A DNA stretch of 64,000 bases from Lytechinus pictus. Lineage: Eukaryota. Position numbers and translations under genes: made by a program. The stretch lies in assembly GCF_037042905.1 (NCBI RefSeq), contig NC_087251.1, forward strand, positions 39,992,001 to 40,056,000, in the 5' to 3' direction. Shown here one piece after another: positions 11,436 to 58,210 of the stretch (position 1 is its first letter; each line of letters begins with the position of its first letter). The notes below the pieces were generated by a model. That model was not told where the DNA came from. It ran no database searches and saw only the letters and a list, made by a program, of their open reading frames with translations.

Positions 11436-12445
11436 TTATTCTGTTTGTGTACCCTGTGTACATATCTTTGGCTGTCTGTAATGAGTTTTCAACGAAACGC
11501 TCTGATGAGGTAGACCCATTTTAGCGGTAACTCGATCTTCTAGGGCTGCATGAATGACCTTCTCCACAGTATGGAGGTCTTCAACATTCTCACACTGTAG
11601 TATGATACACATATCATTGGTCTCTCTATCCTCTGCAATCTGTCCATCTATTGTAAGTACTTCAGTAGAACTATTAGAGATGTCCCCTTTGCCACCTTCA
11701 TCATCATCACCATCATCATCATCATCTGTCTGTTCAACAGTATTCACTGACTCTAGATCAACAAAACATGGCAGAATCACATCCCCTAGCTGAGGATCCT
11801 TTTTAGTATAAAGGACATCATAATCCTTTTCATCTAGTGGAGTTATGTTTGGAGTTAAACTTCTAAATTTCACACCCTCTGTAGATGACACTGCTTCTGA
11901 TTCATGTTTCCTTTCAACTTTCCAATTTCGACGTCTTTTCAACACTTTTGCACGAAACTTCCGCAAGCTGCCCTCCGTTTTCATTTCCCCTTTGCGTATG
12001 ACGCTTATAAGGACGGCAAGATATGCAAGCCCGAGAATATTCCACAATGTAACAATGAAATCGTACAACCAATGTTCCAACCTAGGGCCATCTACAGTTG
12101 CAATGTAGTCCCCGAATCCTACAGTTGTGAGCGTAATAAATGTGTAATAATGGGCAATATGAAAAGACCAATGCTCTAGAAACATGAAAATCACCGCTGG
12201 GATGATGAGGAATATCGTATAGCTGACAGCAGCAACAACAATACCCAAGAAGATTTTACGAATTTTATTTTTCCTGACCATCATCTTGAGAGCTTGGTCG
12301 GCTTTCCCGATATGACCTTTCATAGCCTTTTCGTAGAACGAACCAACACTGGCCAATATCCAAGCAGTAAAGGGTATCCCCAAGGCTGCATATACCATAC
12401 AGAATAGTTGGCCACCATATGTCCTTGGAGCAATAGCGCCATAAC
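11436..12445 (-). CDS. K2P channel coding exon 2 (rest of P1, TM2-TM4, P2, acidic C-tail)
   Basis: Polypyrimidine tract plus TAG| acceptor at 12447-12446. Splicing restores TIGYGAIAP; second pore FITLTTVGFGDY; stop at 11436. Spliced CDS is 304+1010 nt = 437 aa, with an intron of about 11 kb. Confidence 0.93.
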
Positions 12446-12995
12446 CTACAGAAAAACCATAGCCAACAAAAGACAAAAGAGGAAAGGCGATATCAGTTTC
12501 CAGTCTTCCTCTTTCTTCCCTTCATTATGAAAATAATGTTGCTTACATTGTCATATCAGAATAAAAATATTTCTAAGGTTAATATTAAATAAATCTCCAA
12601 GTGCATATGCAGTAATGATCGGACATGATTTTGTGCAGATGGATTAAACCTCACATCGAAAAACCAACCATTGAGAAATTAGTATACAGGTGTACCACAG
12701 AAGGGGTGGGGGTGTTAATGTTCATGGCCATATGCAGCGGGAGCAGGGGGCAGTTGCCCTGCCCCCTTACCCATAAATTTTGAAAACTTCCATTTGTTTC
12801 ATGAAAATTTTAACAAAATTCACCCAAAGTATGCACAGAATATCCTTCAATTTCATTTTTACAAAATACAAAGCGCCCCAATGACAAGCTTGGTCGCTTC
12901 ACTCCCAATTTTTTTTGGAAAATATTCATCATGTTTCCTGCCCCCTCCCAAGCAAAACATGTTTGTGTAAGACCATGGTTATGTTAAGAAGGTGT

Positions 12996-14335: not shown

Positions 14336-15241
14336 AAACAAGTGGAATGCCTCTGGCCGTCTCACCTGCATCACGCGATTCAATATAGCAGCAGTGCTGA
14401 TTTTGAAAACTACTATAACTCGCACAAGATGTTCAGTGATACTTGGTTACTCTTATTTCCACGTTTTATGAACTAGACCAATACACTTATAGAGATATGA
14501 TGGCAATTCAACAAATACCCCCAACGTGGCCAAAGTTCTTTGACCTTACATGACCTTTGACCTTGATCATGTGACCTGAAACTCGCACAGGATGTTCAGT
14601 GATACTTGATTACTATTATGTCCAAGTTTTATGAACTAGACCAACACACTTTCAAATTTATGGCTGTAATTCAACAAATACCCCAATTTGGCCAAAGTTC
14701 ATTGACCCTAAATGACCTTTGACCTTGATCATGTGACCTGAAACTTGCACAGGATGTTCAGTAATACTTGATTACTATTATGTCCAAGTTTCATGAATCA
14801 GATCCATAAACTTTCAAAGTTATGATGGTAATTCAACAGATAACCCCAATTCGGCCAAAGTTCATTGACCCTAAATGACCTTTGACCTTGGTCATGTGAT
14901 GTGAAACTCATGCAGGATGTTCAGTGATACTTGATTAACCTTATGTATAAGTTTCATGAACTAGGTCCATATATTTTCTAAGTTATGATGACATTTCAAA
15001 AACTTAACCTTAGGTTAAGATTTTGATGTTGATTCCCCCAACATGGTCTAAGTTCATTGACCCTAAATGACCTTTGACCTTGGTCATGTGACATGAAACT
15101 CAGGCAGGATGTTCAGTAATACTTGATTAACCTTATGGCCAAGTTTCATGAACTAGGTCCATATACTTTCTAAGTTATGCTGTCATTTCAAAAACTTAAC
15201 CTCAGGTTAAGATTTGGTGTTGACGCCGCCGCCGCCGTCGC

Positions 15242-15273
<32 letters not shown>

Positions 15274-15324
15274 TCGGAAAAGCGGCGCCTATAGTCTCAC
15301 TCTGCTATGCAGGTGAGACAAAAA
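14336..15324 (+). mobile_element. Helentron-associated (HINE/DINE-1/pearl-like) element, family C, full length
   Basis: 5' AAACAAG, sub-terminal GTCTCACCTGCAT, about 160-bp tandem core repeats, (GCC/GTC)n microsatellite, 3' hairpin GTCTCACTCTGCTATGCAGGTGAGAC followed by an A-run. Confidence 0.75.
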
Positions 15325-23177: not shown

Positions 23178-23479
23178 TTAAAAACAACTAATAAATATCA
23201 TGTGAAAGGAAAGGATGGGAATTTCAAGTTCCATTATGTTGCTGGTGTTGGTGTTGGAATCACCATTTCAATTGCTATTCCTAGCTCCAAAACTAATCTG
23301 ATATTACAAAGATAATCCAAATCACACAACCAATAGTTCAACACCCAGTGGGACTTGTCCCACTCTTGTTGTTGCTTTGGTGCAATGCTGATGTAAAAAT
23401 GGTCCCTTCACCAATACTAAAAGCAGAACATAAAATCACCTATTGCATATTTGAAGAAAAAAAATCGTCTTCAGCTTAC

Positions 23480-23783
23480 CAATAGTGGTGACGACAGTCC
23501 CCGAGAAGAAGAAGGCACTACTGAAATCCCAGTTTGACGGACTGGTCCTGTTGCCATCCATGGTGACACCACTGCTCCTAGCCTGGAGCAAAATACTGGT
23601 GAAGTTCATCAGAACGTCTTCAGTAAGGCAGGAAAAGGTCTCCAGAAACTCGCTACGGATGGCCACGAGATCAAGCCGTACATTGTCTTCATGTTCTTGT
23701 TCCAGGAAATGGAACACGACAGCACCGAGGAGGAGGTAGACGAAGAGGAGGAATGTGAGGATGGAAAGTCGAAGTCCATTCAT
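23480..23783 (-). CDS. Two-pore domain K+ channel (K2P/KCNK, TALK/TREK-like), coding exon 1
   Basis: ATG at 23783 with an in-frame TGA upstream. Encodes TM1 (LTFLLFVYLLLGAVVF), a cap with Cys (FSCLT) and pore helix 1 (SNWDFSSAFFFSGTVVTTIG). Phase-1 donor G|GTAAG at 23479 splits the TIG^YG filter. Confidence 0.93.
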
Positions 23784-24745
23784 CGTAATTTCTGGAATGT
23801 ATCACTATACTCTGCACAATCAAAGTCTTTGAACTTTTCTTGATCGAGTCCACAAATTGGGTGAGTCTGAATTGGTTTCAGAAAAACTGATCAAAGTGCA
23901 CATTGAACATCTAACATCCAGGTTGCTCATGAAGTCGTTGCATCTCCCTATATAGATTTAATGAAGAAAAACTTAAATCAGTATGCCTGCTGGTTATATC
24001 TTGTCAAATATTATTAGATTAGATGCAAAAATTAAGCTATACCACTTTTCATATTTCTCCTTTCTCCTCTTCTTTTCTTTCTATTCTAAATTTTCAGATT
24101 CTATAAGTCTATTAGCATTTGTGTGCTTTGTCTGCATGTTGCATTTTTACTTTTACATCTTTTTTAATATGTACTTTAGTGCTGTAGCCCAAACCGCCGA
24201 ATTAAACGGAAGTTCACCGAACATAAAGGCCTGGGGCGGTATTCTGAGGTCATTTTATTTTATCTCTTAAAATGAAATTGGTATTCTGAGATGACATTTT
24301 ATCTCTCAGATAAAATTTTAGATTTTATCTTGCGTATAAATTTTTTCTTGCGTATCTTTAGATGATACGCAACAGAGCAGTGCCTGCGTAGACATACCCA
24401 TCGCGTATCTGGCCATTGCAACGCGGATGATGTGCTTGCGCCCATATTACTTTGAAGCCAGATAAAACGAACTTAAAAGAGGGTAGGGGCTGTTTTATCT
24501 CCGCGACGTTGATTTCATCATTATTTCTAGGTGAATTAACTCCAAATGTTGACATGAAAATGAAGAAAAATTATATATTTATTGAGAATAACACCTTAAC
24601 ATTATTCCTGTACAATCAGGAATTATTTCATAAGACTTTTCTTGACTAATATTGTCTTTGAAATGATGCTTGAAAAGATGCGGTTTAGACTTCGAAAAAA
24701 ATATTAGAGTATTGTCATTTTTTAAAACAGAAATCTAAAATGGCT

Positions 24746-30386: not shown

Positions 30387-31895
30387 AACAAGTGGAATGC
30401 CTCTGGCGGTCTCACCTGCATCACGCGATTCAATATACATGTAGCAGCAGTGCTGACTTTGAAAACTACTATAAAATAATTATTCACAAAAAACACCATT
30501 CATATAATGATACAGTACTACATTCATGACATTTGACCTTGATCATGTGACCTAAAACTTGTCAGTGATATTTGATTACCCCTATATCCACATTTTATAC
30601 ACTATTATCTATAAACTTTGAAAGTTATGACAGCAATCTAATAATTACCTCTAAAATGGCCAAAGTTCAATGACCTTAAATAAACTTTGACTTTGGTCAT
30701 GTGACCTGAACTCGCATGAGATGTTTAGTGATATTTGATGACTCTTATGTCCAAATTTTATACAATACACTTACAGAGATATGATGGTAATTCAACAGAT
30801 ACCCCCAACATGGCCAAAGTTCATTGACCTTAAATGACCTTTGACCTTGGTCATGTGACCTGAAACTCGGACGGGATCTTCAAAGATACTTGATTACTCT
30901 TATGTCCAAGTTTCATGAATCAGACCCATAAACTTTCAAAGTTATGATGGTAATTCAACAGATACCCCCAATTTGGCCAAAGTTCATTGACCCTAAATGA
31001 CCTTTGACCTTGGTCATGTGACCTGAAACTCAGGCAGGATGTTCAGTAATACTTGATTTACCTTATGGCCAAGTTTCATGAACTAGGTCCATATACTTTC
31101 TAAGTTATGCTGTCATTTCAAAAACTTAACCTTTGGTTAAGATTTGGTGTTGACGCTGCCGCCGCCGTCGGAAAAGCAGCGCCTATAGTCTCACTCTCCC
31201 GGGGGGGGGGGCCACTTCCATTGACGAGTGGATACCATGCGCGACCACGGGGTCTTGAATAGCATCCTAAACACGTATTTTCCATATTCTAAAAATGCAC
31301 CCCTTAACAAGTATTGGCATGTGAAACCCTACCCTTAACAAGTATTGGAAACAAATACTATTGGCAAGTATTCCCAGAACTGAGCCCCTAAACAAGTACA
31401 GCAATGTATTTTCCATATTCTGAAAATGCACCCCTTAACAAGTATTGGAAACAAAACGATACTCTTAGCAAGTATTCCCTGAAATGAACCCCTAAACAAG
31501 CACAGAGATATTTTATTGTTATGTCACGCGTCCGTCGGTCGTCGGTTTTACCTTTAGACACCATTATTTTGGTTTAGTACGGCCCCACCTTCCACACCTC
31601 GCGCAAATCGGACTCTAAACACGTAGTGTTGGGGCAAAAAGGACATCCTTTATAAAACATTTTGATTTTGTTTTATCATCCCCGCATATTTGACCCTAAA
31701 CACGTATATTTTTTAGAGCGAAATAGATACCCTTTTTTCAATATTTTTGTGTTTTTGACACCCTTATCACGTTACGTACGTAACGTGCCCTATCTTGAAA
31801 AAGACATCCTTTTTACGTGTTTTTTTGGTCGCGCATGGTATCCACTCGTCAATGTAAGTGGCCCCCCCGGGCTCACTCTGCTATGCAGGTGAGAG
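30387..31895 (+). mobile_element. HINE-like family C copy interrupted in its 3' hairpin
   Basis: Same 5' end, core repeats and GCC tract; insertion at 31198-31871. Confidence 0.7.
31198..31871. mobile_element. MITE with 8-bp TSD and CCCGGG(G)n termini
   Basis: TSD CTCACTCT at 31190-97 and 31872-79; TIR GCCACTT(C/A)CATTGACGAGTGGATACCATGCGCGACCA; partial copy at about 34080-34212. Confidence 0.8.
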
Positions 31896-35710: not shown

Positions 35711-36101
35711 TCGGTGGCACTTTTAAGCTTCCATACTATGGGGTTCGCCAGTCATAATATTAGAAGAGGTCGAGGGTCGCCAGTCAAAATAGCAAAAGAG
35801 GTTCGCCAGTCATAATAGTAGATGGGGTTCGCCAGTCATAATACACTACTCAAAAAAAGTTAAGGACCACTTTTTAAAACGTACATAAAGATTTTATACA
35901 AGGTGTTTTATTTCTGGAAATACCTCAGTACAACTGTCCTAAATGTCCTTAAACACGCTGTAATCAATTTCACGCATGGGTGGTTTCAGTTGTTGCACAA
36001 TGTCTCTCGCATCACTGCACATCCTGAAAAGTGGGCCCCGAGGGGTATCAGCTACCGACATGAAGTGGTAAAAACGAATGTCTGAGTGTCTTTCAGGCAG
36101 T

Positions 36102-36965
36102 TCAGTAACGAGTGTGACCACCTCCTGCAGCAATAACGGCTTCACAGCGCTGTCTCATGGAGCTGATGAGGCGATTGATGTCTCTGACGTCCAGTGCATC
36201 CCATGCAGCCTCCAGAGCCACACCCAGCTGCTGCAGTCCAAGTGGATGGGCTTTGAGCTGCTCGAGACTCCTCCCCATCATGTCCCAGACGTGCTCTATC
36301 GGGTTTAAGTCCGGGGACCTCGCTGGCCACTCCATACGCTCAATCCCCTGGCCCTCAAGGAACTCGGTCACCACCCTAGCTCGGTGGGCACGGGCATTGT
36401 CATCCATGAAAATGATGTTTTGTCCCACATTTTCTGCAAATGGCACCACTATAGGTTCAAGGACCTCATCCCTGTACCTCACTCCTGTCATTGCTCCCCC
36501 TGGGACCACGTAGAGACGAGTACGGTTGGCGTAGGTGATGCCTCCCCACACCATGACGCTGCCTCCCCCATAACGGTCATGTTCTGCAATACAGGGGTCT
36601 GCAAATCTCTCTCCTGGTCGCCTCCAGACTCTCGAACGTCCATCATTGTGGTCAAGGGAAAATCTGCTCTCATCTGTGAACAGAACTCTACGCCATTGCT
36701 GTCTGGTCCATCTGACATGCTCCCAGGCCCAGTTGAGACGAATTCTTCTGTGAGCAGGGGTGAGTGGGACACACTGAGCTGGCCGTCTGGCATGCATATT
36801 GGCTCTGTGAAGTCGGTTACGGATTGTTTGAGTGGAAACAATCACTCCAGTTGCTGCAGCGAAGTCATTGTTGAGGCGGCGTGCACTATCTCTACAATCA
36901 ACAACTTGCTGACAATAGCAATGCCAAGATACAGCTGTCCAGAATGCCATCAAACACAATGACAT
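36102..36965 (-). pseudogene. Inverted, N-terminally truncated copy of the Tc1 transposase (frame still open)
   Basis: Matches the + ORF from SARRLNN to the stop except V/M and N/K. The frame stays open into the spacer, with an ATG at 36965. Confidence 0.8.
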
Positions 36966-37089
36966 CAATTTCACACATGCAGTTCTTTCATGATGTCTCT
37001 GGCATCATTGCAGTGGGCCATAAGACAAGTGTCTTCCAAAGCATTTTCCGTCTTTAGTCTGTACAATCAACAACTTGCCTACAACAGCA

Positions 37090-38118
37090 ATGCCAAGACA
37101 CCACCTAAGTGAAACAGATGTAGCCAGAGCCCTAGGGATGCTGGAAGCTGGCCTCAGTCAGCGAAGAGTAGCCAGAATGATGGGCGTGTCACACAGTGTC
37201 ATTAGCAGAGCAAATCAAAGACACCGAGAGACAGGGCTATACTCCGAGAGACCCCGCAGTGGCCGACCAGTTTCGACAACCCCTAGAGATGATCGCTACT
37301 TGACGAATCTCAGCCTCCGCAACCGCTTTCACAGTGCACGCCGCCTCAACAATGACTTCGCTGCAGCAACTGGAATGATTGTTTCCACTCAAACAATCCG
37401 TAACCGACTTCACAGAGCCAATATGCATGCCAGACGGCCAGCTCAGTGTGTCCCACTCACCCCTGCTCACAGAAGAATTCGTCTCAACTGGGCCTGGGAG
37501 CATGTCAGATGGACCAGACAGCAATGGCGTAGAGTTCTGTTCACAGATGAGAGCAGATTTTCCCTTGACCACAATGATGGACGTTCGAGAGTCTGGAGGC
37601 GACCAGGAGAGAGATTTGCAGACCCCTGTATTGCAGAACATGACCGTTATGGGGGAGGCAGTGTCATGGTGTGGGGAGGCATCACCTACGCCAAACGTAC
37701 TCGTCTCTACGTGGTCCCAGGGGGAGCAATGACAGGAGTGAGGTACAGGGATGAGGTCCTTGAACCTATAGTGGTGCCATTTGCAGAAAATGTGGGACAA
37801 AACATCATTTTCATGGATGACAATGCCCGTGCCCACCGAGCTAGGGTGGTGACCGAGTTCCTTGAGGGCCAGGGGATTGAGCGTATGGAGTGGCCAGCGA
37901 GGTCCCCGGACTTAAACCCGATAGAGCACGTCTGGGACATGATGGGGAGGAGTCTCGAGCAGCTCAAAGCCCATCCACTTGGACTGCAGCAGCTGGGTGT
38001 GGCTCTGGAGGCTGCATGGGATGCACTGGACGTCAGAGACATCAATCGCCTCATCAGCTCCATGAGACAGCGCTGTGAAGCCGTTATTGCTGCAGGAGGT
38101 GGTCACACTCGTTACTGA
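37090..38118 (+). CDS. Tc1-family DD34E transposase, intact, 342 aa
   Basis: N-terminal HTH, RSGRP linker, WRRVLFTDESRF, MVWGGI, FMDDNARAH and WPARSPDLNPIEHVW; 34 residues lie between the second D and the E. Confidence 0.95.
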   Translation: MPRHHLSETDVARALGMLEAGLSQRRVARMMGVSHSVISRANQRHRETGLYSERPRSGRPVSTTPRDDRYLTNLSLRNRFHSARRLNNDFAAATGMIVSTQTIRNRLHRANMHARRPAQCVPLTPAHRRIRLNWAWEHVRWTRQQWRRVLFTDESRFSLDHNDGRSRVWRRPGERFADPCIAEHDRYGGGSVMVWGGITYAKRTRLYVVPGGAMTGVRYRDEVLEPIVVPFAENVGQNIIFMDDNARAHRARVVTEFLEGQGIERMEWPARSPDLNPIEHVWDMMGRSLEQLKAHPLGLQQLGVALEAAWDALDVRDINRLISSMRQRCEAVIAAGGGHTRY

Positions 38119-40274
38119 ACTGCCTGAAAGACACTCAGACATTCGTTTTTACCACTTCATGTCGGTAGCTGATACCCCTCGGGGCCCACTTTTCAGGATG
38201 TGCAGTGATGCGAGAGACATTGTGCAACAACTGAAACCACCCATGCGTGAAATTGATTACAGCGTGTTTAAGGACATTTAGGACAGTTGTACTGAGGTAT
38301 TTCCAGAAATAAAACACCTTGTATAAAATCTTTATGTACGTTTTAAAAAGTGGTCCTTAACTTTTTTTGAGTAGTGTATTAGAAGAGGTCGAGGGTCGCC
38401 AGTCATATTAGCAGAAGAGGTTCACCAGTCATAATAGTAGATGGGGTTCGCCAGTCATAATATTAGAAGAGGTCGAGGGTCGCCAGTCAAAATAGCAGAA
38501 GAGGTTCGCCAGTCATAATTAATAGTATAGATGGGGGTCGCTAGTCATAATATTAGAAGAGATCGAGGGTCGCCAGTCAAAATAGCAGAAGAGGTTCGCC
38601 GGTCATAATAGTAGATGAGGGTCGCTAGTCATGAACAAGATGCGTATGTAGCTGAATAAGCACTGCAAGCGCGAAGAGCGAGCAAAATTTTCTAATCTAC
38701 ATTAATTTCTAGCCTGATCGAAAAGGGACCTGTTAAGAACTGTTTGCAGTTAGCCATGAAGACGATAAATATTTCAAATAATGCGACCGTGGATCACGAG
38801 CTGAAAATTTTAGTAATTACGACCTAAAAAATGACATTCTAAGCACTTTTTGTATTCGTGAACAGGAAAGGTAGTATCACAAAACAATGCGAGCGCGAAA
38901 CACCAGCAGAAAAAAAAATTGAGGTTTATAGACTTAAAAATGATATACGCTATTCATGTTTTGTAAATCATGAAAAATAATGATTGGTATAATTGGTTAT
39001 ATTTTTACCATAGTAAAACGAGAGCGAAACGCGAGCAAATTTTTTTTTGATATTCTGATATGAAAATTTGATAATTTACGCATGTTTTGAATAAAGAACC
39101 AGCTGCGTATTAGAACATCAGCGTGATTTATATTTAGACCTAGTATATGGGCATTCTAAATACATTTTTTATCATGAAAATGAATAATGCGAGCGCGAAG
39201 TGCAAGCTGAAAACGTTTAATATTCCAAACTGAAAAAAGGGTCAATTTAAGCATTATTTCAAGCACCGCATAGGAAAAATAATTGTAAAGTGAATATGGA
39301 TCGCAGTTAATAAATGAGGCGAGCGCGGAGCACGAGCTGATGTTTGTTGGTTATTATTTTGACCAAGGACCGGAACATATAAGGACAGTTTGTCATCATG
39401 ACTGTCTTCATATTCCTCTACCTAAGCGTGAGATGAAACTTGTCCATATATCCTGAAAAAGGGACAATTTAATTATATGGAATTCATGAAAAATTAATCT
39501 TATATATTAATCTAATGAGCCTAATGATATCGAGCGCGAAATTTGTTGATATATTAAGGTCTGAAATTGGACATTCTAAGAAATTCGTAATCCTGAATAC
39601 TATAGGATGCATGGGTGAATATATTTTCAATAATATTAATGCAAGCGCAAATCGCGAGCCGAATGTCATTAAAATGGGATTTTGAGTATATAATAAAAAT
39701 ACAGAGGTATACATATCTCACCATTTAAAATACGAGCGCGCAGTGCTAGCTGATAGGTTTTGACAATCAGACCTGAAAAGGGAAAGGCATTTTGAGAACT
39801 TTATGGAATACACTTATTAGATAATAGCTACTTAACTAACCAAATAATACGAGCGCCCAGCGTGAGCTGAAAATGTTGACACTCAGACTATAACGGACGT
39901 TTTACACAACACTTTTTTAAAATCAATTCGTAAGTCCAAAAAAAATGAAAGCTCGTTGTCCGAGCTGAAATACATTTTGTATATTGACTGCAAAAAATAA
40001 TAAGCAGCCTATTGAGCAAGATTATGTATCTCATCACATGCAATGCGAACGCGAAACGCGAGCAATGAAAAATTTTCCATACTTTTTCATTAAATTTTCC
40101 AAGGCATCCCCTCACCTTATTTTATTCACTCGTTTCCTCCTCTTTTTTTCCTCTTCCTTTTTCTCCTCTCTTCCCCCCTTTTTTGCTCCACCCCCTGGAT
40201 CGGCCTATAAATGGCAACCCTCTGCTAATATTATGGCTGGCAATCTTCTTTTCCCGATATGACTGGTGACCCTA

Positions 40275-54045: not shown

Positions 54046-55003
54046 TTTTTGTCTCACCTGCATAGCAGAGTGAGACTATAGGCGCCGCTTTTCCGACGGC
54101 GACGGCGGCGGCGGCGTCAACACCAAATCTTAACCTGAGGTTAAGTTTTTTAAATGACAGCATAACTTAGAAAGTATATGGACCTAGTTCATGAAACTAG
54201 GCCATAAGGTTAATCAAGTATTACTGAACATCCTGCCTGAGTTTCATGTCACATGACCAAGGTCAAAGGTCATTTAGGGTCAATGAACTTAGACCATGTT
54301 GGGGGAATCAACATCAAAATCTTAACCTAAGGTTAAGTTTTTGAAATGTCATCATAACTTAGAAAATATATGGACCTAGTTCATGAAACTTATACATAAG
54401 GTTAATCAAGTATCACTGAACATCCTGCATGAGTTTCACATCACATGACCAAGGTCAAAGGTCATTTAGGGTCAATGAACTTTGGCCGAATTGGGGTATT
54501 TGTTGAATTACCATCATAACTTTGAAAGTTTATGGATCTGATTCATGAAACTTGGACATAATAGTAATCAAGTATTACTGAACATCCTGTGCAAGTTTCA
54601 GGTCACATGATCAAGGTCAAAGGTCATTTAGGGTCAATGAACTTTGGCCAAATTGGGGTATTTGTTGAATTACAGCCATAAATTTGAAAGTGTGTTGGTC
54701 TAGTTCATAAAACTTGGACATAATAGTAATCAAGTATCACTGAACATCCTGTGCGAGTTTCAGGTCACATGATCAAGGTCAAAGGTCATGTAAGGTCAAA
54801 GAACTTTGGCCACGTTGGGGGTATTTGTTGAATTGCCATCATATCTCTATAAGTGTATTGGTCTAGTTCATAAAACGTGGAAATAAGAGTAACCAAGTAT
54901 CACTGAACATCTTGTGCGAGTTATAGTAGTTTTCAAAATCAGCACTGCTGCTATATTGAATCGCGTGATGCAGGTGAGACGGCCAGAGGCATTCCACTTG
55001 TTT
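54046..55003 (-). mobile_element. HINE-like family C, full length, nearly identical to 14336-15324
   Basis: Reverse complement of the 14.3-kb copy; differs mainly by a shorter GCC microsatellite. Confidence 0.8.
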
Positions 55004-55692
55004 TAAATATAAATCATTTTTTGTAGAATAAAGAAAAAAACCATGAAATGGTAGTATTGAATATCAAAGTTATAGTATAAATAGGGAAAAGTAAATAGTT
55101 CAACATTGAGAGAAAAAGGAGGAAAATCAATGAAGAATAAAGGACATTTTTATTGCCTATTTAAATTTATAAACGATTACGATAACGATCAATTACGATA
55201 ACATGCAATCGTAGAGCATTTTCCATGCATATTTAGCTGTGAAAATGACAAGTTTTCATCACAAAACAACTATTTTTGTCTCGCCTGCATGGCAGAGCGA
55301 GAATATAGGCGCTGCTTTTCTAACAGCAGCTTGTCGTCAACATCAAATCTTAACCTAAGGTTAAGTTTTTGAAATGACATCATAACTTTCAAAGTATATG
55401 GACCTAGTTCATGAAACTTACTCATAAGTGTAATGAAGTATTACTGAACATCCTGCCTGAGTTTCAGGTCACATGACCAAGGTCAAAGGTCATTTAGGGT
55501 CAATGAACTTTGGCCATGTTTTGGGGGGTATTTGTTGAATTACCATCATAATTTTTAATGTTTATGGAGCTACATGTAGTGAATAAAACTCGGACATAAG
55601 AGTAATCAAGTATCACTGCACATCATGTGCAAGTTTCTGGTCACATTTAGGGTCAATGAACTTTGGCTATGTTGGGGGTATTTGTTGAATTA

Positions 55693-58210
55693 CACAATTT
55701 GGAAAAAGTCTTGCAGACAATATACCATTAACACAAAAGAAATTTACGGATTTCATTCACCAACCAAACGCTAATTCTTTATTTTTAGTGCCAGTACATA
55801 GGAATGATATAATAGAAATAATGAACAACTTAAAAAAATATAAAAAAGCCGTTGTCACGATGCACAGTGGGCCAGAATGAGTTGAAAGTGCGCCAAAATT
55901 ATATTCCGTGTTATATTTTTACTTTAACATGTTGATTAAGGGTAATTTTGGGCGTAGAATCGACTGAACATAATTTAAAGCCGATATAACGTCACTTTGA
56001 TACCAAATTTTGATTGGCTACTTAAAACCTATCTGTGAAAAGACAAATTACGCTAAACAATGTGTAGTATATAAACTTTGTATTATGTGTTACTTTAAGA
56101 TTGACCAGAGTGAATGTTGCTTTATGCTTCTCACATGCCTAAAAAGTGTGGATGAGATCCTCAAAATAATGTTATGGCATCAAAATGATCATTAGATTAA
56201 AAAAATACTTTAAAATCTGAAAAATGTTAACCGTGCTTTATCAAGCGGCGTAGACTTGGGTAAAACGCAGAGTATATAACACCACGAATGTTTTACTATG
56301 AGGAGGGTTTTTGGCTGAAATGATTCTACAAGTAACTTTTATCTCTGGAAGAGGGGGGGGGGGTAGCCCTAATATGCGTGATCAACCTTTATTTTGTTTG
56401 CATTAAGCCCGGAATTCATGTCATTTTCATGAAATGGAAGGGGAATCGTCCTCGCCGTGCAAAAAGTAACGGCAATGTACACCCCACACGGTGCGCTGCA
56501 ATGACTGCGCGGTATAAAAATGACCGTTTTTGAACAGGTTTTGGGGGTGTTGTGTCAAGTAAAATCGGCTCTAACATGAAAACGGTCAAAAACGGGCAGC
56601 TAAATTTGGTATCGCCTTAAAGCTTAGACATCTAGCAAAATGATGATGATAGAATTTAAACGGAAATCCACGGAAATCCAAACGTTTCTAATGTAAATGC
56701 AAAAAACATGGATTATCATCCTATTTCGAGGAACAATTATCCTATAAACCTCCTGAAATGTGTCTTTTATCTAATTTGAACCCTTTCACACGAAAAAAAG
56801 AATATATCACGATTATGTGGGTGCCATTTCAGATTCCTACATGAAAAACCCCCTGTGAAATGGCCTGTTTTTCAACTAGGTTGTCATATGCATGGCATTT
56901 CGCAAAATGTCACATTTTACGATTTGAGGTAGAAAATTAACAACCTTTATGCAAATTCCCGAATGAAATATTTTGCTGAAGTATTCTTCAAAGTGTTGTC
57001 TTTCAGCTGGGCATGACAAAAATTAAAAATCTGAAATTGCCCAAAATGACTTTTGGCGCACTTTTGTTTCGCCCCGGCCCACTGTGCGATGGTATTGACA
57101 ATATTTTATTAAAGAATGTTACAGAATATATTGTTGATCCATTAGTATACATGTACATATTTAATCTGTCTTCAAGAAATGGTGTCGTGCCTGACAATAT
57201 GAAAATATCTAAGATAATACCAGTGCACAAAAAAAGAGAGAAGATTAATGTATGTAGCTATAGACCGATAGCTTTATTGCCCACTTTGTCTAAAGTTACG
57301 GAAAGGGTGATCTATCCAAGATTATTAAAATTTTTGAATGAATATAAAGTAATTTCTGATTTTCAAATTGGATTTCGCAAAAAATGTAGTACATCTCATG
57401 CCACACTCGCATTTATTGACAAAATATCTAAAGCTATTAATAACTTTGAACATACAATAGGTGTTTTTTTGGACCTCTTCAAGGCCTTAAAATCATGAAA
57501 TACTTCTCTACAAACTTGAAAATTACGGAGTTCGTGGGAAGGCCTTGGAGTGGTTCAGAAACTACGTCACAAATCGTAAGCATAAATGAAAAAAATTATT
57601 CTCTACAAAATGTTAACTAGGTTGTTCCCCAAGGCAGCGTCCTGGACCCACTTTTATTTATAATCTATATTAATGACAGCTAGAACTCTTCTGAAATATT
57701 ATCTTATGTCCTTTTTGCTGATGATTCAAATGTGCTCTAATCTCATCGTAACCCCGATATTTTACTTAATGTACTGAACACGGAGCTGGGTAAGTTGGTA
57801 CAATGGATTAGGGCTAACAAATTTTGCGATGAATGTACAAAAAAACTAAATGCATGCTTTTTAGCAATTCTTTAGAAAAATTGCCATTTACTATTAAACT
57901 GGACAATATAGACATTGAAGTTATTACTACAACAAAATTTTTAGGTCTCATAATAGACAAATTATCTTGGAATACACACATTGACTTTATATGTCGTACA
58001 TGCTTTATTCAACATTAATTTTACCATATCTAAATTATAGGACGGTTGTCTTTGGAAATACACACTCAACCTGCCTTGATAGAATAATTGCATTTACAAA
58101 AGAAGGCGCTGCGTGTTATTTTGAACTTGTCCTAGAGATCCCATACATATCACTTGTCTTTCAAAAATAAAATTCTAAAAATTAAAACTCTGTACCAATA
58201 TAACCTAGGT
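55693..58210 (+). pseudogene. Decayed CR1/L2-group LINE reverse transcriptase, split by the Transib element
   Basis: YRPIALLPTLSKVTER, QIGFRKKCST, VFLDLFKA, VPQGSVLGPLLFIIYIND and LFADD motifs with stops and frameshifts. HD^GID is rejoined when the Transib is removed. Confidence 0.85.
55863..57086. mobile_element. Non-autonomous Transib-type transposon with RSS-like ends
   Basis: CACAGTGGGCC...GGCCCACTGTG termini; 5-bp TSD CGATG (55858-62, 57087-91); AAAGTGCGCCAAAA at equal distance from both ends; no transposase ORF. Confidence 0.85.

Follow-up and report, generated by a model that had tools for sequence, protein, structure and literature searches.

The closest described relatives of the element reported here are Transib transposons, whose published ends have a heptamer separated by a 23-bp spacer from an A-rich block that resembles a nonamer, whose target-site duplications are 5 bp long and GC-rich, and whose resemblance to recombination signal sequences (RSSs) was already a result of 2005 (PMC1131882). 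A DDE enzyme that resembles the RAG1 core serves as the Transib transposase; it binds the ends, uses a nick-hairpin route of cleavage and, with a preference for GC-rich targets, leaves a 5-bp duplication upon insertion (PMC1131882, PMC4840297). For the moth Transib transposase, the nick-hairpin route and 5-bp duplications are described together with ends that are heptamer-like and have little or no nonamer likeness (PMC4840297). Among sea-urchin members, Transib1_SP is autonomous, being 4,132 bp long, encoding a transposase of 676 aa and having CGGCG as its duplication (PMC1131882), and TransibN1_SP is a non-autonomous Transib of Strongylocentrotus purpuratus described by Kapitonov and Jurka in 2005 (PMC1131882, Fig. 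S4g). Across the 11 TransibN1_SP copies printed there, CGNCG is found in 10/11 left and 10/11 right flanks, and 8 copies have identical 5-mers on both sides (flanks read by eye; PMC1131882). In the insect families Transib5, Transib2_AG and TransibN1-N3_AG, the 5' and 3' ends are reported to be of unequal length and similar to RSS12 and RSS23 (PMC1131882). Additionally, RAG-like transposons carry an A-rich block, TR2, directly after the heptamer, at positions 8-10 (PMC7204232, PMC10629977), and the bat-star TransibSU end is printed with an A-rich block in the same place (PMC4411706 supplement). The ends of RAGL-A show a 10-bp asymmetry in spacer length (PMC10629977), and echinoderm RAG-like ends are described as having no nonamer equivalent (bioRxiv 10.1101/100735).

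Within the window, by which we mean the whole 64-kb stretch of Lytechinus pictus DNA that was analysed, we observe an insert of 1,224 bp at 55863-57086 which reads CACAGTG inward from both termini and lies between two direct copies of the 5-mer CGATG on the plus strand, at 55858-55862 and 57087-57091. The insert, its terminal heptamers and its 5-bp target-site duplication, all of which had been given in a preliminary description of this DNA, were reproduced at 55858-57091. Upon trying duplication lengths from 2 to 11, we found a direct repeat at 5 only. The target, measured on this one copy, has 3/5 G+C in a window of 36% G+C and is in this sense GC-rich. The observation is real and cleanly bounded, and it appears rightly placed in the Transib superfamily, a placement made from the ends and the duplication only. 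The ratio of observed to expected CpG reaches 0.93 within the element, compared with 0.63 for the window and 0.67 for the flanking LINE, and the higher value in the element is in line with a younger insertion.

Next, we compared the two 36-bp terminal inverted repeats, the left at 55863-55898 on the plus strand and the right at 57051-57086 on the minus strand. Both consist of block 1 (positions 1-11, CACAGTGGGCC), an 11-bp linker and block 2 (positions 23-36, AAAGTGCGCCAAAA), and both blocks are the same at the two ends, with GGCC at positions 8-11 and AAAA at positions 33-36. The ends align without gaps at an inverted identity of 28/36, and all 8 differences fall in positions 12-22, so that the linkers are unlike at 8/11 positions. 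With inverted repeats that start with CAC and an A-rich second block that has A at both critical nonamer positions, the element conforms to the published Transib end design. A motif around AAATTTGGTATC is found twice in the element in inverted orientation, at 55996-56010 and at about 56595-56625, and could possibly be a conserved internal binding site.

The ends of the element come close to identity with those of TransibN1_SP. The 36-bp end of TransibN1_SP agrees with the right end of the element at 32/36 positions and with the left end at 28/36 (compared by eye; PMC1131882), and the element is identical to it at positions 1-11 and 23-36, that is at 25 fixed positions. The target is also similar, since CGATG is one letter off CGACG (4/5, by eye). 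There are two differences, in that the published TransibN1_SP consensus has perfectly symmetric ends whereas the linkers of the element are unlike, and in that the element, at 1.22 kb, is longer than most published copies, which span about 0.9 kb (their coordinates give 0.56-0.99 kb; PMC1131882). Because the linkers differ at 8/11 positions and the published consensus is symmetric, we file the family of the element as a putative sister of TransibN1_SP and not as TransibN1_SP itself, a comparison made by ends and duplication only. That the RSS resemblance would be a new feature is not supported, as the conserved end blocks are letter for letter those of TransibN1_SP, published in 2005. The related concern that the element might turn out to be a known ordinary Transib family is borne out largely for the end blocks and not for the symmetry of the linkers. 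In our survey of the literature, no description of the 1.2-kb family was found, the only match to the ends being that in the supplement of PMC1131882; the papers listed on Transib, Lytechinus and transposable elements do not describe the family in their titles or abstracts, and the full-text matches to the first 11 letters of the end were, among the matches listed, unrelated by title.

Transib1_SP belongs to the same superfamily and has the same duplication type, but encodes a 676-aa transposase where the element encodes none. The insect families Transib5, Transib2_AG and TransibN1-N3_AG resemble the element in a heptamer-like start followed by GGGC, a 5-bp duplication and an A-rich second block, but their ends are reported to be of unequal length, in contrast to the equal spacing in the element (PMC1131882).

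The element interrupts ORF2 of a decayed LINE (non-LTR retrotransposon) on the plus strand, at 55700-58200 with approximate limits, which we recognise by translation, by a match to RVT_1 and from contigs of public sequencing runs. This ORF2 holds several stops and frameshifts and is split by the element, and the host LINE is dead. Upon removing the element together with one copy of the duplication, the codons H-D-G-I-D, which the preliminary description had taken to fix the boundaries, are restored in the same frame as the downstream LINE frame, and the frame continues into the part that matches Pfam RVT_1 (E 5e-8). In the public-run comparison, which covered the region 55560-57400 at a threshold of 85% and drew on contigs of the DNA runs X1, X4 and X13 and on reads of the RNA run X23, one contig in each DNA run (3/3) joins 55837 directly to 57087, with 18 different letters in place of the 20-nt left flank of the window. 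These contigs represent LINE relatives without the insert, in which the duplicated 5-mer is present once, and they support the boundaries independently. They are probably other copies of the LINE rather than an empty allele, because the long uninterrupted contig of X13 differs at 25 positions and has 6 gaps within about 310 bp.

The interior of the element, at 55899-57050 with no strand assigned, is non-coding. Across the whole element, the longest stop-free frame has 66 codons, an Rfam search gave no match, and a blastn search within the window found no second copy. Parts of the element are present in public runs of three organisms, at no more than 0.31 of the sampled words, and in the DNA runs X1, X4 and X13 all 30 bins are covered. 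Diverged relatives are numerous, internally deleted ones among them, with joints such as 56063-57011 and 56526-57044 (among the 15 of 120 joints listed). In X13, seven contigs align gaplessly to a total of 906 bp of the element, differing at 32 positions (3.5%), and an X13 contig over 55862-55995 shows a single difference, at 55988, which makes the left end including its linker a family trait in X13. Among the 40 of 231 rows of differences listed, 18 of the 29 in the element have the other letter at a depth of at least 90% in X1, X4 and X13, which points to changes private to the copy in the window. No RNA run was among the main runs listed as holding words of the element; the RNA run X23 gives thin coverage of the element, mostly on one strand, with reads mostly 90-95% alike, and these reads stem from other copies of a different sample and are not taken as evidence of function. 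The loose contig ends all derive from a neighbouring satellite-like repeat (among the 24 of 793 listed).

We also scanned viral and metagenome contigs with the end pattern, and obtained 0 loci in the former and 2 in the latter, L001 and L002, each a single end. Both keep the two blocks, which follows by construction of the pattern, and vary in the linker, and AAAA again stands at positions 33-36; the flank is CGACG in L002 and CGGCC in L001. In these short single-end contigs, we found no frame of more than 90 codons. L002 matches the interior of the element in one 66-bp patch at 73% and is otherwise unlike it, and the AAATTTGGTATC-type motif is also found within this patch, at 2-67 of L002. 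The two loci have subterminal sequence in common with each other that is unlike the element of the window, and they carry ends that belong to another family in which both terminal blocks are the same. L001 additionally contains a nested tandem palindromic repeat at about 420-1240.

Taken together, the element is very probably a non-coding copy of a multi-copy Transib family near TransibN1_SP, which a Transib transposase from elsewhere in the genome likely inserted into the dead LINE. The earlier proposal of a non-autonomous element of the Transib superfamily, one that made a 5-bp duplication in a LINE and belongs to a multi-copy family, is supported by the geometry of the ends, the lack of coding capacity and the contigs of the public runs. 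A Transib transposase, an enzyme of about 700 aa, from an autonomous copy elsewhere would bind blocks 1 and 2 at both ends, reading positions 1-11 and 23-36 of each and tolerating change in the 11-bp linker. A family member would have been excised and then inserted at a near-consensus, CG-rich site in the LINE, with gap repair making the 5-bp duplication. Judged by the common duplication type, the enzyme may be a relative of Transib1_SP, a likely kind of partner. The copy in the window would now be passive, having diverged by about 3.5% from the family contigs in one run. One observation counts against this explanation, namely the difference between the left and right linkers at 8/11 positions, given the symmetric consensus of TransibN1_SP. 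The element is ordinary, being a gene-less copy with the known hallmark ends of Transib, and the contribution is small, in that it adds a sister family of TransibN1_SP. What it illustrates is that a two-block end and a target of the CGNCG type persist as linker and interior turn over, and the kept positions mark bases that a sea-urchin Transib transposase probably reads.

Next, we examined the spacing of the RSS-like ends. The counts reported earlier were recovered: read inward, the right end is the heptamer, 12 nt and ACAAAAGTG, a match of 6/9 to the nonamer, and CCAAAA follows after exactly 23 nt at both ends, where the nonamer score is 5/9 on the left and 6/9 on the right. At spacer 12, the left end scores 3/9. 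The better match of the right end at spacer 12 had been read as a hint of asymmetry between the ends, a reading that does not hold for the spacing, as the ends are ungapped over 36 bp with equal spacing, where the spacers of a 12/23-type pair would be unequal by about one helical turn. The A-tracts in the 12 and 23 registers are indeed present at both ends, but they are the edges of one 14-bp block and express no 12/23 difference: on the left as on the right, the first A-run of this conserved block falls in the 12-spacer register and its last A-run in the 23-spacer register. The difference between the ends is one of linker sequence and not of spacer length, and as a sequence asymmetry it is real. 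Furthermore, positions 20-22, the first three letters of the supposed 12-spacer nonamer, are TTG, ACA, GCA and GTA among the element, L001 and L002 (four ends) and ACC in TransibN1_SP, and since they differ in all five ends compared, these letters are not conserved. At spacer 12, both ends of TransibN1_SP reach 5/9 (by eye; PMC1131882), which places the 6/9 of the right end one substitution away. A match of 6/9 to the nonamer is reached by 1.8% of the 9-mers of the window, and it is expected in 7% of cases for 4 tries and in 20% for 12, so that on its own it is weak evidence. Compared with the vertebrate 12RSS and 23RSS, the element has the exact heptamer and A at nonamer positions 5 and 6 in both registers at both ends, but lacks a full nonamer (6/9 at best) and a pairing of 12 versus 23, and its conserved unit is instead the 14-bp block that straddles both registers. 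As part of the explanation preferred above, and with the same high confidence in it as a whole, the RSS look would reflect the ancestral design of Transib ends, out of which RSSs arose, and not a 12/23 system.

These ends also bear on whether the element could be a deletion derivative of a RAG-like transposon (RAG1L-RAG2L; TransibSU/ProtoRAG), or be cross-mobilised by one, with the right end serving as the 12-spacer and the left as the 23-spacer end, a reading that we regard as very unlikely. In favour of this reading, both ends have the exact heptamer; at spacer 12, the first six letters of the nonamer are matched by the right end (6/9), while the left has 3/9 there but 5/9 in the 23 register; the left linker behaves as a family trait in X13 at least; and echinoderms have RAG-like transposons with 5-bp duplications (PMC10629977, PMC4411706, bioRxiv 10.1101/100735). 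TransibSU, ProtoRAG/RAGL-B and RAGL-A moreover share with the element heptamer-like termini starting with CAC, GC-rich 5-bp duplications, occurrence in echinoderms and non-autonomous derivatives (PMC4411706, PMC7204232, PMC10629977). However, the A-rich block that follows the heptamer in these transposons is replaced in the element by GGCC at positions 8-11. The 10-bp difference in spacer length of RAGL-A has no counterpart in the ungapped ends, the right end scores 6/9 at spacer 23 too, and positions 20-22 vary across the five ends, with TransibN1_SP at 5/9 on both sides for spacer 12. Additionally, a 6/9 match is expected by chance in 7-20% of such looks. The RAG-like transposons carry convergent RAG1L and RAG2L genes whereas the element has no frame beyond 66 codons, although the absence of genes is by itself compatible with a gene-less RAG-like derivative. 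As to the suggestion that the family is mobilised by a Transib or RAG-like transposase, a Transib enzyme is likely, given the ends and the duplication, and a RAG-like enzyme is disfavoured, because positions 8-11 are GGCC and not A-rich.

A further version concerns the ends rather than the parentage of the element, and it proposes that the family turned a symmetric end of the TransibN1_SP type into two fixed and unlike ends, a right one that would act as a 12-spacer signal through its perfect heptamer and the first six nonamer letters and a left one that would act in the 23 register only, which would be paired by a Transib or RAG-like enzyme of this sea urchin. We give this only a very small chance, and we keep it in view because the linkers are asymmetric against the symmetric TransibN1_SP and because the left version recurs in another sample. 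If true, the family would be a living single-family model of the 12/23 rule arising from one block that straddles both registers. Were the linker difference functional, the element would be a natural substrate for how symmetric Transib ends became a 12/23 pair, and no measurement points there.

An origin in another superfamily with CA or CAC ends (Chapaev, EnSpm/CACTA) or in the hAT group, with a convergent likeness to Transib, is less likely still; Chapaev duplications are 3-4 bp long, and in the element duplication lengths of 2, 3 and 4 give no direct repeat. The CMCT clade has CA..TG ends with duplications of 2-5 bp and hAT5 has 5-bp duplications, which would suit such an origin, and the duplication of EnSpm is 3 bp (PMC12730594). 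The element itself encodes no transposase that would speak against it. The third terminal base is C in the element, and hAT ends have G at this position (PMC1131882, Fig. S7 legend). The 25 fixed positions and the target type shared with TransibN1_SP go far beyond a common CAC. On these grounds, Chapaev and EnSpm (CACTA) are rejected for the lack of a direct repeat of 2-4 bp, and hAT5 for a third terminal base of C instead of G.

As a chance control independent of the motif of the element, we collected CAC...GTG pairs at most 10 kb apart with a 5-bp direct repeat and an inverted identity of at least 22/36. The sole qualifying pair in the 64-kb window is the element (28/36), and among 40 dinucleotide shuffles, 3 gave one pair each at 22/36 and none was higher. 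An earlier test with random inverted 36-mers (14 of 2,000,000 at 28/36 or more) was set aside as contaminated by the real inverted repeats of the window, and a shuffle test of the end pattern (0/100) was circular, the pattern having been derived from the element itself. That the element is a chance inverted repeat or an assembly artefact is hardly credible and is refuted by this control, in which it stands above the shuffled pairs (28/36 against 22/36), and by the independent runs, which contain many contigs of the family and relatives of the LINE without an interruption, with the same ends also present in unrelated metagenome contigs.

The window contains further repeats and genes. At 35839-38381 lies a young Tc1/mariner-type element with terminal inverted repeats of 1,049 bp that are 99.7% identical, and its transposase frame of 364 stop-free codons (37024-38118, plus strand; Pfam DDE_3 and HTH_Tnp_Tc3_2) is mostly inside the right repeat, so that the gene is present a second time, inverted and 5'-truncated, at about 36102-36887 on the minus strand. 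Such a foldback layout could yield hairpin RNA. Two long frames on the minus strand, at 11436-12521 and 23436-23801, match Pfam Ion_trans_2 and probably represent exons of a gene for a two-pore potassium channel, the nearer of them at a distance of about 32 kb from the Transib copy. Finally, a tandem and dispersed repeat with units of 162-192 bp occupies 54046-55693 and recurs at 14336-15324 (96.6% over 989 bp) and 30525-31197. A piece of this repeat (55560-55745) greatly exceeds the element in abundance in X1, X4 and X13, and it is represented by thousands of strongly one-stranded reads in the RNA run X23.
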